From: Malacoraja senta | Lineage: Eukaryota | DNA length: 64,000 nucleotides | Direction: 5' to 3' | Assembly: GCA_038087875.1 (NCBI GenBank) | Contig: CM075991.1 | Coordinates: 8,558,001-8,622,000 of the forward strand | In this document: in pieces, positions 1-35,032 of the stretch | Position numbering within the stretch: position 1 is the stretch's first letter | Layout of the letters: each line of letters begins with the position of its first letter | Translations under genes and position numbers: made by a program | Notes under the pieces: generated by a model | Told to the model about the DNA's origin: nothing | The model's input: the letters and a program-made list of their open reading frames with translations, nothing else | The model's database searches: none

Positions 1-268
1 TGAGGAGGAATTTCTTTAGTCAGAGGGTGGTGAATCTGTGGAATTCATTGCCACTGGCGGCTGTGGAGGCCAAGTCTATATATACTTTTAAGGCGGAGAT
101 TGACTCTTGATTAATAAGGGCATCAGGGGTTACGGGGAGAAGGCAGGAGAATGGGGTTGGGAGGGGAAGATGTGTCAGCCATGATTGAATGGCGGAGTAG
201 ACTTGATGGGCTAATTCTGCTCCTAGAACTTATGAATTATTGTGACGGAGTTACAATCGAGGGTCTCC

Positions 269-413
269 TTCTTCCTCCTCTTGCGTATGGCGTGCACAGC
301 CTAAAGTTGTAGGACAACCTGTTCTATTTGATCTTATTTGATTGTGCACGCCGGGTTGATTGCATTCGTCGAAACAGGGCGGACCACGTGAAGGTTGCAA
401 TCTCCCACCCCAA
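269..413 (-). mobile_element. Short non-autonomous retroelement with HDV-like ribozyme head and (AAG)n tail, copy 1
   Basis: Near-identical to 19647-19773 and 34258-34400. Ends ...GCCATACGCAAGAGGAGGAAGAAGG. Confidence 0.8.
358..411 (-). ncRNA. Minimal HDV-like ribozyme fold (54 nt) at the 5' end of a short retroelement, copy 1 (intact)
   Basis: Reverse complement reads GGGGUGG(P1) GA GAUUGCA(P2) ACC(P3) UUCACGU(L3) GGU(P3') CCGCCCU(P1') G(P1.1) U-UUCG-A(P4) CGAA(J4/2) UGCAAUC(P2'). All helices pair. The G1-U wobble and the catalytic-C-containing CGAA match HDV/CPEB3 ribozyme topology. Activity untested. Confidence 0.75.
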
Positions 414-1412
414 CGGGGTCTGAGGAAGGGTCTCGACCCGGAACGTCACCTATTGCTTCTCCCCAGAGATGCCGCCAGACCCGCTGAGTTACTCCAGCTT
501 TTTGTGTCTGTCTTCAGCCTGAGTGCGACGGTCTGGGCTGACATCCCTCCGTGGAGCCGAGGACAATAGACAATAGACAATAGGTGCAGGAGTAGGCCAT
601 TCGGCCCTTCAATGTGATCATGGCTGATCATCCCCAATCAGTACCCCGTTCCTGCCTTCTCCCCATACCCCCTGACTCCGCTATTTTTAAGAGCCCTATC
701 TAGCTCTCTCTTGAAAGCATCCAGAGAACCGGCCTCCACCGCCCTCTGAGGCAGAGAATTCCACAGACAGAAGGAGTAGTTTCATGATCAGCGGCACCAC
801 GTTTCGAGGGGGGGGGGGCGTTAATCCTAGCCCTTCATCTCTTGGAAAGGTTCCCATGCAACACTCCGAAGAAGGCGATTGGAATGACCCCTGGCAGCCT
901 GGCTGATGAATCAGTTGGCTTTGCTCAGATGAATCACCCGGTCATTAACGGACTGCTGACTGGGAGACTGCTGTGGTCAGATAGCCTGACATATTCCCTC
1001 ATTGAACAGAGCTCCTTCATTTCTAACTACTTCATTGGTTGCCAAGTGCATTACGATGCCCCCAGGTCACAAGGGGCACTGGTGGGGAAATTAAACTGTT
1101 CATTAAAATAAAGTAGAATAAAAAGACGTATTACCAATGGCGACCTTAAGCCCACCTGGCTTCACAAAGGTCTTTCAGGTACAAAATCATGAGAGGAATA
1201 TATTGGGTAGGTACATAGAGTTTCCTGCCCAGAGTAGGGGAATTGAGAAGCAGAACACATTGGTTTAAGGTGAGGGGGGGGAAAGATTTAATAGGAACCT
1301 GAGGCGTAACGTTTTCAAACTATGGGTGGTCGGTGTATGGAACGAGCTACCGGAGGAGGTAGTTGAGGCAGGTAATATCGCAACGTTTAAGAAATATTTA
1401 GACAGGTACTTT

Positions 1413-18865: not shown

Positions 18866-19646
18866 ACAGAGAGTCAGGCGAGAGGGAGACACAAATTTAA
18901 GGAAGGGTAAGGTGTGAAAACAAGACATCAGAAGAGATGAGGTTCATGGAAAATGTGGAATAGATCATTGTTAGCGAGGAGAAGGTGTCAACAAAGCAAA
19001 CAGATCAAATGTAATCGGGGACAGTCATACTGGTTGGAGAACTATGATGGGGGTGGGATGGAGAGAGGGAAAACAAAGGTTGCTTGAAGTTAGAGAAGTC
19101 AATACCAAAGAAGGGTCTCGACCCAAAACGTCGCCCATTCCAACGCTCCAGAGATGCTGCCTGTCCCGCTGAGTTCATCCAGCATTTTCTGTCCATCCAC
19201 TGTCACAAATAATCGGCTCAGAATTTTGAAGCGCAGGAATGTTAAAAGAAAAGTCACCGAGCAATGAATCAATTTGCTCGATGTGCTTCCTGCATTCCTA
19301 ATGGGATAAGTCACCCTACTCACCAGCATATAATCTATCCGATACGGTTACGCTCTGGAGTAAAGCCTCCAGTTCAGTGTCACTTGTTCAATCTTCTGTT
19401 GCGGTTAACAAACTGTCTGCAAGGATCACCATTTTCTTCAGATAGCTGTGACAATAAAAGACCTTTGAACCGTTGAATCCAAATTCGTCCCAACAGAGCA
19501 GGAGACCGAGTGCATGGACTGGACTGGACTGGACTTTGAAAATGGCGCCAGAACCTGGCGACTCCAGCGTGGTGGTCTCAGTGGACAATTTCTGTACACC
19601 TTGCTAATCTGTATTTACGTGTGGCTATACTTTACTGAACTGTGTG

Positions 19647-19773
19647 TTGGGGCGGGAGATTGCAACCTTCACGAGGTCCGCCCTGTTTCGACGAATGCAC
19701 AATCAAACAAGATCAAACAGAACAAGTTGACCTACAACTTTCGGCTGTGCACGCCATACGCAAGAAGACGAGG
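19647..19773 (+). mobile_element. HDV-like-ribozyme-headed short retroelement, copy 2, with 13-bp TSD
   Basis: TSD ACTGAACTGTGTG at 19634-19646 and 19774-19786. P1 GGGGCGG/CCGCCCT starts at 19649. A short deletion between two TGCA motifs damages P2'. AAG-type tail. Confidence 0.85.
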
Positions 19774-20109
19774 ACTGAACTGTGTGCGAAAAAATAATTT
19801 TGCTGCGCATTCGTGCAAGTGACAACAAATGCAACGTGGACCATTGACCATTGAGTTGTACAAATCCTTCTTCATTGTCAAATATATGTTCACCCATCTC
19901 ACCACCCAGAAGGCCAAGGTCAGTGTGCATGGGGTAAGCCCACCACTTTCAAGTGACGTGGGAATATATTGCCAATCCTTTATTGTTGCTGGGTCTAGGT
20001 CTGGGAACCTTTCCCCAACAGCAGATGGATTGCAGCAACTAAAAGAGGTTGCTCAGCGCCGTCACCTCGAGCGATCTCGAACAGGCATTAAACGGTGGCC
20101 GCTCCTAGG

Positions 20110-31878: not shown

Positions 31879-34257
31879 ACCCGAAAAGTCACCTATTCCT
31901 TTTCTCCGGAGATGCTGTCTGGCCCGGTGGTTTACCCCAGCTTTTTGTGTCTATCTTTGGTTTCCTTCCCACACAGAATATGAATGTTGTCCCTTGAACT
32001 ACATTTGGCCTCATTGACTGCAAGATATAGTAATGGAAACGCCACCCTCCAGCCTATTGGGTCCATCATCACCCATTCACACTAGTTCTATATTATCCCA
32101 CTTTCTTACCCACTCCCAGCACATTTGGGAGTCATTTTACAGCAGCCTAGAAACCCACGTGTCCTTTGGGGATGTGGGAGGAAACCAGTGCACCCGGAGA
32201 AAATCCACGCGGTCACAGGAGAGAAGTGAAAACTGCACTCCGACAGCACCCGAGGTCAGGATCGAACCGGGGTCTCTGGCGCTGGAGGCAGCGGCTCTAC
32301 CGGCTGCGTCACTGTGCCGCCCAATGTAAACATGCAGGAAGACACAGGAAGTCGAAGTCAAAGTCAAATTTATGCACCAACGACGGTGCAGTGAAATAGA
32401 TTTGCCAGCAGCGATACACTTAGGAGATCAGAGGAGGGGCAAGAGCGGGGAATTAAAATGATGAAGAATAGCCCGAGATCTCCGTGGCTGCAAGACAGAT
32501 ATGCCTCCGAGCCACCAGAACATTAGAGAACCAGATGTTTATGTGGATAACATTATCACCTCCAGCTTTTAAACCATTAATTAATTGTATTCCGACAGGA
32601 GCTGTTGTGTGTTTTGAACGATTATCTCTGGGCCAGTTCTCCAATCCTTTGCATTACATGTCGAATTTCATAAAGTCACTCAGAGTCCAACATCCCATCT
32701 CGAACCGTTTGCACTGATGGGATTTGACCTTGCATCTCTACATCAGTAGCTCAGAACTCTGGCTGCCGGCTCAATGTGTGATGATGATGATGAAGCATGA
32801 TGCCACTGCACCTTGTATCTATACGGCTGTGTACAAAAACAGTGGTTCACCGATGAAAGACTTCACTGCCCACCATCTCCTTGTTCCCTCACCGTATGGA
32901 CATGAGTCGAAGTGTTTAATAAGTACTTGTCCCTCTCCGCACACACTGGGCTCTTGTCCAAACCTAACCTCCTTTATTAGTTGTAATAAATTGGCATGGG
33001 CACCAGTGAAGGAACAACAGCTGTCCAGGGGTAACAAATGATTCTTCTCTTTCTGGGGTTTGCTTTGAACAACTGGATCCAGCAACAGTAACCTGGCTTT
33101 ACCTCGCGCTGAACGTTATTCACTCCTCATGTATCTCTGCACTCGACTGTAATCGTGTATTTTCTTTCCGCTGACTGGATAGAACGCAACAAAAGCTTTT
33201 CACTGTACCTCGGTACACGTGACGAGAAAGGAAACTGAATAACCCCCAGTTTTCTCCACTCCTCTCGGCCCCGGTTTTACCAGCAGAAGCAGCGGCTGAG
33301 GGCCTGATTCCGGGAATTCACTCCTGGCATGGACATGCAGGGAATGGAGGAGTATGGATCACGTGGATATTTTTACGGCTGAGATGGACAAATTCTTCAT
33401 TAGAATGGGTGCCATGGTTTATGGGGAGAAGGCAGGAAAGTGGGATCCAGAGGCAGAGATCAGCCATGATTGAATGGCGGGGTAGACTCAATGGGCCGAA
33501 TGGCCTCATTCCACTCCCATGACTAGTGAACGCGCAGGCAGATGAAACCAGATTATCTTGGCGTCATGTTTGATACACATATTTTGGGGCCAATGGGCCT
33601 GTTCCAGTTCTGCACTTTTCTATGTTCCATGTTCCATGTTAAAACTCTCCTTGAAACCTATTCCTTTAACCAACCCGATGGTCATTTGAATCACATCTAA
33701 TTCCACTAAAGTCAAAAGTGTCTTATTGTCGTATGTCCCAGATAGAGGAATGAAATTCTTACTTGCAGCAGCCCAACACAATATGTAAACAATTTCATAA
33801 ACGAGAGAAAAATATATCTATATATATATATACACACACACAAACACAAACAAAGAATAATATTTCAAAAAGACAAACCAATGCCCCCGTCTATGTAGTT
33901 CGGAGCTTATTTGGAGGTTGTAGTGTTAATATCGCCTGATGGCTGTAAGGAAGAAGCTGATCATGAACCTGGACGTTACAGTTTTCAGGATCCTGTACCT
34001 TCTTCCCAATAGACATAGAGTGCTGGAGTAACCCAGCGGGTCAGGCAGCATCTCTGGAGAAGAGGAATAGGTGATGTTTCGGGTCGAGACCCTTCTCCAG
34101 ACTACAGAGATGCAGCCTGACCCGTTGAGTTACTCCAGCATTTTGTGTCTATCTTCGGTATAAAGTCGGGACCCTTCTTCAGTCACCCCCAGACGGTCTT
34201 CTACCCTGTCTAGACCCTTTCATTAAAAAAAGTCCCAGTGAGGACCCCTTTTCGCGC

Positions 34258-34400
34258 TTCTTCTCTTCTTGCGTATGGCGTGCACAGCCTAAAGTTGTGG
34301 GACAACTTGTTCTATTTGATCTTATTTCATTGTTCACGCCGGGTTGGTTGCATTCGTCAAAACAGAGCGGACCACGTGAAGGTTGCAATCTCCCCCCACC
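34258..34400 (-). mobile_element. HDV-like-ribozyme-headed short retroelement, copy 3 (diverged)
   Basis: Same body and AAGAAG tail, with substitutions in P1', P4 and P2' and an expanded G run at the 5' end. Confidence 0.8.
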
Positions 34401-34416
34401 CCCCCCCCCCTCTGCT

Positions 34417-35032
34417 GGTCCACTGGTCCACTGGTCCACTGGTCCACTGGTCCACTGGTTCACTGGTCCACTGGTCCACTGGTCCACAGGTCCACTGGTC
34501 CACAGGTCCACTGGTCCACTGGTCCACTGGTCCACAGGTCCACTGGTTCACTGGTCCACTGGTTCACTGGTTCACTGGTCCACTGGTCCACTGGTCCACT
34601 GGTTCACTGGTCCACAGGTCCACTGGTTCACTGGTCCACTGGTTCACTGGTTCACTGGTCCACTGGTCCACTGGTCCACTGGTCCACAGGTCCACTGGTC
34701 CACTGGTTCACTGGTTCACTGGTCCACTGGTCCACAGGTCCACTGGTCCACTGGTTCACTGGTCCACTGGTCCACAGGTCCACTGGTTCACTGGTCCACT
34801 GGTCCACTGGTTCACTGGTCCACTGGTCCACAGGTCCACTGGTTCACTGGTCCACTAGTCCACAGGCCCACTGGTCCACTGGTCCACTGGTCCACAGGTC
34901 CACTGGTTCACTGGTTCACTGGTCCACTGGTTCACTGGTTCACTGGTTCACTGGTCCACTGGTTCACTGGTCCACTGGTTCACTGGTCCACTGGTCTACT
35001 GATCCACTGGTCCACTGATCCACTGGTCCACT
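34417..35032. repeat. 8-bp tandem repeat (GGTCCACT, variants GGTTCACT/GGTCCACA), 77 units
   Basis: 616 bp divided by 8 gives 77 units. It explains the WSTGPLVH ORFs. Confidence 0.95.

Follow-up and report, generated by a model that had tools for sequence, protein, structure and literature searches.

A 64,000-nt stretch of the Malacoraja senta genome (assembly GCA_038087875.1, contig CM075991.1, positions 8,558,001 to 8,622,000 of the forward strand; hereafter the window) carries copies of a short retroelement headed by a predicted self-cleaving ribozyme. The family, which is certainly one of retroelements, is non-autonomous and without long terminal repeats (non-LTR); its ~140-bp unit is composed of a 54-nt 5′ module resembling the hepatitis delta virus (HDV) ribozyme, a 3′ hairpin and an (AAG)n tail. 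We propose, with a probability of about two in three, that the element is promoter-less and that its 5′ end is made by self-cleavage of this module, a putative HDV-like ribozyme with a CPEB3-type core and no P4 helix.

Architecture of the 54-nt 5′ module

In the first copy, the module lies on the minus strand at 411–358, and its sequence agrees letter for letter with that quoted in an earlier note on this DNA. Ribozyme positions (r) are numbered from G1, at window position 411, such that r equals 412 minus the window coordinate. P1 consists of seven base pairs between r1–7 (405–411) and r30–36 (376–382), of which the first is a G1·U36 wobble and another is U5·G32; over 31 distinct copies, 96.8% of the cells of this helix are paired. 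A 2-nt J1/2 (403–404) leads into the 5′ strand of P2 (r10–16; 396–402), which would form seven Watson–Crick pairs with r48–54 (358–364), crossing P1 and giving rise to the second pseudoknot. P3 is a 3-bp helix between ACC (r17–19; 393–395) and GGU (r27–29; 383–385), capped by a 7-nt L3, UUCACGU (386–392). L3 supplies C22, and a G (G37; 375) directly follows the 3′ strand of P1 opposite this residue, making one P1.1 pair, C22–G37, possible. A P4 helix is missing and is replaced by 6 nt, UUUCGA (369–374). These are followed by J4/2, CGAA (r44–47; 365–368), located directly 5′ of the P2 3′ strand, in which C44 (368) is, by its sequence, the candidate catalytic cytosine. The absence of P4 does not disqualify the module, because P4 is described as dispensable, and natural P4-less HDV-like ribozymes are reported from silkmoth R2 and from abalone (PMC3774820). 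The most conserved ribozyme stretch in R2 is given as CCUCCUCGUGG (PMC5035012); the element carries CCUUCACGUGG at the corresponding position. ViennaRNA, which is blind to pseudoknots, returned P1 together with P3 as the minimum free energy (MFE) fold of the 54 nt alone.

A descriptor was written that required a 7-bp P1 with the G1·U pair, a P2 of 6–8 bp, a 3-bp P3, a C within L3, a G after P1, CNRA and the 3′ strand of P2. Its sole match in the window is 411..358. There were no matches in 56 dinucleotide shuffles of the window (both strands, 7.2 Mb in total), and in 363,713 bases of local sequence, both strands, all 31 matches are copies of the element. A full match that begins on the very first base of a repeat family is not plausibly an accident. 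With Rfam at expectation values (E) up to 10, the only match in 200–500 is the Faecalibacterium prausnitzii HDV ribozyme model, RF02682, aligned end to end at 14.4 bits and exactly over 411..358. On the 69-nt stretch 350–418, four models matched: three are of the HDV class and agree on one register, and the fourth, nadA, picks up the P2 hairpin alone. The alignment to the CPEB3 ribozyme model (RF00622) shows no difference from the model consensus in L3 (UUCACGU), CCCUGU or CGAAU. The HDV-like architecture that the earlier note had proposed for the module thus fits far better than chance, as judged by the descriptor scans and by the common register of the three Rfam models, and the fold at the family's first base is very likely genuine.

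Sequence variation was assessed in reads and contigs of four organisms (four runs), with a threshold of 5% inside the 54 nt. The only frequent variants outside CpG dinucleotides are G8A in J1/2 (2–44%) and G45U, at the N of CNRA (11–49%), a major variant that turns J4/2 into CUAA. The remaining variants at or above the threshold are CpG transitions at r24/25, r31/32, r41/42 and r44/45, plus a minor C33U, and those CpG changes that fall in P1 preserve pairing as G·U or U–A. No variant reaches 5% in the P1 5′ strand, P2, P3, the first four bases of L3, A46 or A47. The 79-nt 3′ domain has nine variable sites outside CpG; its contrast with the ribozyme is a tendency and is not significant. The earlier note had also taken a U/C difference at P1 position 5, opposite G, for family variation that keeps the pairing. 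This does not hold, as the change is private to the copy at 19649 (the other 10 near matches in that subfamily all carry T) and is therefore not family-level variation.

Two shorter forms of the element bear on how the module is joined to the 3′ hairpin. In a subfamily 16 nt shorter than the abundant form, the 3′ strand of P2 overlaps the 5′ strand of the outer hairpin stem and P2 requires a 2-nt bulge. A second form, 18 nt shorter, retains a perfect P2 (at least 14 rows). Our reading of these sequences is that the extra segment of the abundant long form may let P2 and the 3′ hairpin form side by side.

Retrotransposition footprint and the boundary at G1

A 30-mer core and a 23-mer 3′ motif of the element each match three times in the window and not once in 100 shuffles of it, and the two further copies that the earlier note had placed at 19647–19773 and 34258–34400 are real. 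For the first copy, that note had given 269..413; the element is present there, and its start is at 411, because the TT at 412–413 belongs to the junction and is not constant in the family. Behind the ribozyme, the first copy continues for ~75 nt, containing a long 3′ hairpin whose outer stem has 10 bp and whose inner stem–loop has 7 bp (289..352, minus strand), and ends in a degenerate, AG-rich tail of the (AAG)n type (282–267, minus strand). The hairpin has a folding energy of −22.7 kcal/mol (z = −3.92), and none of 200 shuffles folds as well; it is likely to be a recognition structure for the reverse transcriptase. The downstream target-site duplication (TSD), AGACCC, lies at 261..266 (minus strand), with its upstream partner at 416–421. 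Between the upstream TSD and G1 lie four junction bases, CGTT (412..415, minus strand), which are outside the family consensus. The second copy (19649..19773, plus strand) belongs to the older subfamily that is 16 nt shorter; it is preceded by two extra T (19647–19648) and flanked by a 13-bp TSD (19634–19646 and 19774–19786). The third (34260..34399, minus strand) is decayed, with a broken P1 and a G run at its 5′ end, and no TSD was found for it.

The high genome-wide copy number suggested by the three copies in the window is borne out in the window's own assembly (1.94 Gb). A pattern on the 5′ 23-mer, which samples about three-quarters of the 5′ 23-mers, has 2,978 exact matches (1,502 + 1,476) and its reversed control has none; the exact 54-mer is present in 425 copies. 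When the genome was searched with the 149-nt copy, 869 first-look candidates emerged, and all 40 that were scored align over 141 nt or more of the 149, at 95–100% identity. For the subfamily of the second copy, 39 other matches were scored, all of which align over 118 nt or more of the 125, at 85–94% identity. Copies are dispersed over all large contigs. One recurrent upstream context, ACAATGGGACA (about 10 of 100 rows), was considered as part of a longer element and rejected, being an old 3′-truncated copy inside a tandem unit of ~1 kb (L091, C1:41966600-41968200); its recurrence means that part of the copy number reflects amplification of a host repeat and not retrotransposition.

Copies end in (AAG)n, pure in most of those inspected, after which the upstream flank is repeated. 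Among 57 local copies with both anchors, 47 have a TSD; a stricter call retained 40, with a median length of 11 bp and a range of 7–15 bp. The target site is loose, with T at −2 in 26 of these 40, C or T at −1 in 28 and A at +1 in 24. Copies truncated at their 5′ end have TSDs of their own (loci L078, L087 and L076). Dispersed copies with variable TSDs and a simple-repeat tail place the family among the non-autonomous non-LTR retroelements, or SINEs (short interspersed nuclear elements) in the broad sense, in line with the earlier note's reading of it as a retroelement family, and the TSDs, tail, truncations and target preference together are, as read from these sequences, the footprint of target-primed reverse transcription. 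By analogy with other non-LTR elements, the mobilizing enzyme is presumably that of a long interspersed nuclear element (LINE) of the apurinic/apyrimidinic (AP)-endonuclease type.

The constant part of the family begins at G1. In 100 genome rows taken in contig order and selected without regard to the bases before G1 (hand tally), GGGTGGG is preceded by G in 91. The base at −1 relative to G1 is T in 52, A in 26, G in 8 and C in 5, and the two bases before G1 vary likewise (TT 22, AT 14, GT 8 and CT 8). In the 47 copies with a TSD, the duplication ends exactly at G1 in 16 and overlaps the element by one or two G in eight; one extra base is present in 13 (12 T and one C), two (TT) in three, and at least four in seven, the last being probably imperfect TSD calls. 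Loci L061–L090 were chosen without regard to the 5′ end, and of the 20 with a TSD, 15 abut or overlap G1, three have one extra base and two have five. In contigs and reads of the four organisms, likeness to the element ends at 411 or 412 on one side and at the tail, 279, on the other. Taken together, these data put the start of the constant part at the predicted cleavage site; the outcome that would have refuted the earlier note's reading, element 5′ boundaries unrelated to the start of P1, is not what is seen. The bases before G1 are, on this tally, junction bases and not inherited ones. TT as the true element start, seen in 27 of the first 31 copies, was rejected as an artefact of ranking against a query that contained TT, the unbiased figure being 22 of 100. 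For those R2 elements in which the ribozyme cleaves exactly where the element begins, non-templated bases and microhomologies are described as arising at each insertion and being removed again by cleavage (PMC3774820), and for Perere-3, headed by a twister ribozyme, TSDs adjoining the cleavage site have been taken as evidence of cleavage (PMC8501958).

The surroundings of individual copies include other repeats. The first copy is inserted into another very abundant short repeat (414–520, minus strand; also 34013–34170, plus strand), a hairpin-forming unit with long inverted arms that resembles a miniature inverted-repeat transposable element or a SINE; its depth in reads and contigs (bins 422–445) is above that of the element. 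The third copy is directly adjoined by a 9-bp satellite with units of CTGGTCCAC and variants (34414–34650 and beyond). At L087:1250-1510, a 5′-truncated copy lies, by eye, within an apparent remnant of a Tc1/mariner-type transposase.

Generation of the 5′ end and origin of the family

In the mechanism that we propose, a copy would be transcribed inside a longer host or neighbouring transcript, and the ribozyme would fold and cut immediately 5′ of G1, as the fold and the boundary suggest. The released RNA would then begin at G1 whatever the upstream sequence. An AP-endonuclease-type LINE enzyme may nick a loose T-(C/T)|A site, prime on the (AAG)n tail and copy the RNA to its 5′ end. Second-strand priming would use 0–2 extra bases, mostly T, or 1–2 bases of microhomology, with the result that junction bases would differ from copy to copy and would not be inherited.

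Several observations weigh against this proposal. Within the module, the single P1.1 pair is all that the 54 nt offer, and G37 and C44 could, by eye, pair with each other around a UUCG loop, thereby sequestering the candidate catalytic cytosine. The descriptor was written after the instance had been seen, so its false-positive rate is a guide and not a P value. At the Rfam gathering score, the window and three further loci gave no match: RF02682 scored 14.4 bits against a cut-off of 44, RF00094 13.4 against 50 and RF00622 11.0 against 35, with E-values of 0.6–3.6 even on the 69-nt stretch. The missing P4 accounts for much of the shortfall, and P2 is absent from the models. Covariation is zero: for 19 proposed pairs in 31 distinct rows, 96.4% of cells are paired, changes on both sides occur at none of the 19, and shuffle controls score as well as the real pairs. 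The copies are too uniform for this test to be informative, the ribozyme columns being 97% identical on average. Finally, a form without the 3′ half of the ribozyme is found at four places on contig C1 (73796964, 157329319, 294047086 and 339226255). Either this deletion has arisen repeatedly, for example where the reverse transcriptase jumped over a structured region, or a minor subfamily has spread without an intact ribozyme, which would then not be strictly needed.

To these is added the evidence from RNA, which comes from one polyA RNA sequencing run with raw reads (X24). No position, G1 included, passes the criterion for many molecules beginning or ending there, and 262 reads continue past 411/412 into unlike flank (strands pooled), so that most element-bearing polyA RNA is not visibly cut at G1. 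Bulk polyA RNA hence gives no sign of cleavage at this site and speaks against efficient cutting of most copies, with the qualification that polyA libraries would miss a released, tail-less 140-nt RNA and that the 3′ product, with its 5′-OH, may be unstable. Reads cover the element on both strands, with a first-mate coverage of ~120–205 on the plus strand and ~260–295 on the minus strand. Within 230–450, coverage of the element is ~1.4–2 times higher on one strand, and the neighbouring repeat is slightly biased in the opposite direction. If the library is stranded, which this very asymmetry would indicate, sense-strand RNA of the element is the rarer.

One alternative concerns the origin of the family and is compatible with self-cleavage: the element may be a short internally deleted element (SIDE), in which an internal deletion has brought together the 5′ ribozyme and the 3′ end of a single autonomous LINE that still lives in this genome. 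We hold this possibility tentatively, with the odds tilted away from it. R2 SIDEs share exactly this design, as described in PMC3414825. TSDs of variable length and a loose, T-rich target also fit an AP-endonuclease LINE, and at two places (C9:24867910 and C2167:31656) the CUAA form of the ribozyme 3′ half, that is, the G45U variant, is followed by an identical non-element 8-mer; these sites could be a longer ribozyme-carrying element or a duplicated, rearranged copy. On the other side stand the searches for a parent. A genome search with RVT_1 gave 159,857 first-look candidates, of which the 30 best reverse-transcriptase loci all belong to a single L1-like family carrying neither the tail nor the motif of the element. 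(Open frames inside these loci, L031–L060, reach 1,039 amino acids, and the RVT_1 table lists frames of up to 1,748.) No other repeat end with an (AAG)n tail was found in the window and loci L001–L060. Patterns joining element to non-element sequence at four breakpoints returned variants of the element alone: two exact matches, and 173 with up to three mismatches, at the 5′ edge of the hairpin, all deletion or truncation variants; none exact, and 67 with up to three mismatches, behind the ribozyme, again deletion or truncation variants; seven at the inner stem–loop; and 12 for the last 17 nt. These patterns need near-exact words, and in their exact form they pass 13–24% of unrelated upstream sequence; a rare or diverged parent could therefore escape them. 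Within the limited sensitivity of this search, no LINE was found that shares the 3′ end of the element, as for a SINE, or both ends, as for a SIDE. A Rex3-type tail, (GAA)n, was considered and set aside, since the review PMC6274825 gives it as GCG(GAA)2(GATG)n, which does not match (AAG)n.

An alternative that we regard as unlikely retains a fold of genuine ribozyme origin and attributes the 5′ end to something else, namely initiation at G1 from an unrecognized internal RNA polymerase III (Pol III) or Pol II promoter, the fold being a relic or a binding site for the mobilizing protein. Ordinary promoter-driven SINEs likewise have a precise 5′ end at their first base, the polyA reads show no pile-up of starts at G1, and the R2 protein is described as binding a pseudoknot within its ribozyme region (PMC6765202). 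The promoter itself finds scant sequence counterpart: ARAGORN predicts no tRNA gene in the window, and Rfam at E up to 10 on 200–500 finds no likeness to tRNA, 7SL or 5S. Judged by the A- and B-box consensus sequences, neither box is present within one mismatch and the full B-box consensus has no match within two, leaving a weak A-box-like match, with two mismatches, at consensus position 7. The absence of a tRNA-type A/B-box head, stated in the earlier note, is confirmed by these scans, and the element lacks the tRNA, 7SL or 5S head with internal Pol III promoter of a canonical SINE. The catalytic core also argues against this alternative: the consensus and 425 exact copies retain all that it requires at the sequence level, and its sole frequent variant, G45U, falls on the J4/2 position at which the Rfam HDV-class consensuses themselves differ.

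A wider reading would join four statements, and as a whole we consider it improbable: that the family represents a SINE lineage of its own, promoter-less and with a self-contained 54-nt, P4-less ribozyme of CPEB3-type active site as its sole 5′ function; that this lineage has been kept through several species without a LINE sharing its ends; that such retroelements, and not a virus, are the natural reservoir that supplied intronic CPEB3-type ribozymes; and that the deficit of sense-strand polyA RNA arises because the dispersed copies, in their thousands, do cut host transcripts. Finally, a chance resemblance to HDV in the head of a GC-rich SINE would accommodate the sub-threshold Rfam scores and the lack of covariation, and is very improbable given that the descriptor matches nothing in 7.2 Mb of shuffled sequence and, in 364 kb of real DNA, nothing but the family, that the match begins at the family's very first base and that three HDV-class models agree on its register.

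Relation to known ribozyme-headed elements

Self-cleavage at the head of a promoter-less element, the explanation that we favour, would place the family beside two systems that share its design, which makes a non-autonomous retroelement headed by a ribozyme a known kind. The R2 SIDEs of Drosophila, as described in PMC3414825, are likewise non-autonomous, with an HDV-like ribozyme at the 5′ end, a 3′ end recognized by a LINE, 5′ junctions that vary from copy to copy and target-primed reverse transcription. In that account they occupy the R2/R1 sites of the ribosomal DNA, are rare and have an identified parent, whereas the present family is dispersed in thousands of copies with an (AAG)n tail and 7–15-bp TSDs at a loosely defined target, and its parent LINE was not found in our searches. 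In trypanosomatids, NARTc/L1Tc and other Pr77 elements provide the second parallel (PMC3185411, PMC3383444, PMC4035085): they include dispersed non-autonomous elements in which an HDV-like ribozyme in the first nucleotides is reported to free the RNA from co-transcripts. In those hosts, which are protists, the same sources have the 77 nt acting also as an internal promoter and the head being common to the element and its autonomous partner; in the present family the module has 54 nt and no evident promoter role, and a partner was not found.

Several further systems bear comparison. The autonomous LINEs RTE and Baggins are described as promoter-less, co-transcribed and headed by an HDV-like ribozyme (PMC6765202). 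The same source reports HDV-like ribozymes in some non-autonomous SINEs, as well as hundreds of intergenic ones located between variable upstream and conserved downstream sequence. Self-cleaving ribozymes of other classes are found at the 5′ end of schistosome SINE-like elements (hammerhead; PMC6765202) and in Perere-3, where a twister variant likewise has TSDs beside its cleavage site (PMC8501958). Structural precedents are the P4-less ribozymes of silkmoth R2 and abalone, in which a few nucleotides (five in abalone) replace P4 at a retroelement 5′ end; as described in PMC3774820, silkmoth R2 has a very long J1/2 and draws its P1 from 28S sequence, whereas the present module is compact, with a 2-nt J1/2, and self-contained.

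As the principle is known from R2, R2 SIDEs, L1Tc/NARTc, RTE and Baggins, what the family adds is a new, abundant and compact example rather than a new mechanism. What appears new is a self-contained 54-nt, P4-less core of the CPEB3 type, its thousands of dispersed copies, its presence in the data of several organisms and the lack of a visible parent. No paper was found when article full text was searched for 18–20-nt stretches of the ribozyme in DNA and RNA spelling. If the 54-nt module does cleave, it would rank with the smallest HDV-like ribozymes found in nature and, with thousands of copies in the genome, would provide a convenient natural system for studying how a retroelement manages without a promoter of its own. 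It would also allow one to ask how many host transcripts contain an active self-cleaving insert, and whether CPEB3-type cores circulate in retroelements. For annotation, the family suggests a concrete rule: to look for repeat families in which G1 of an HDV-like fold is the first constant base.

In sequence, the module resembles the mammalian CPEB3 ribozyme (RF00622), with which it has in common L3, the CCCUGU after P1, the CGAAU of J4/2 and a single P1.1 pair. The likeness does not extend to the full length: the score is 11.0 bits against 35, positions 13–72 of the model alone match, with P4 deleted, and the sequences of P1 and P2 differ. The two also differ in their genomic setting, as the CPEB3 ribozyme is a single intronic copy, whereas the present module is the head of a multicopy retroelement.

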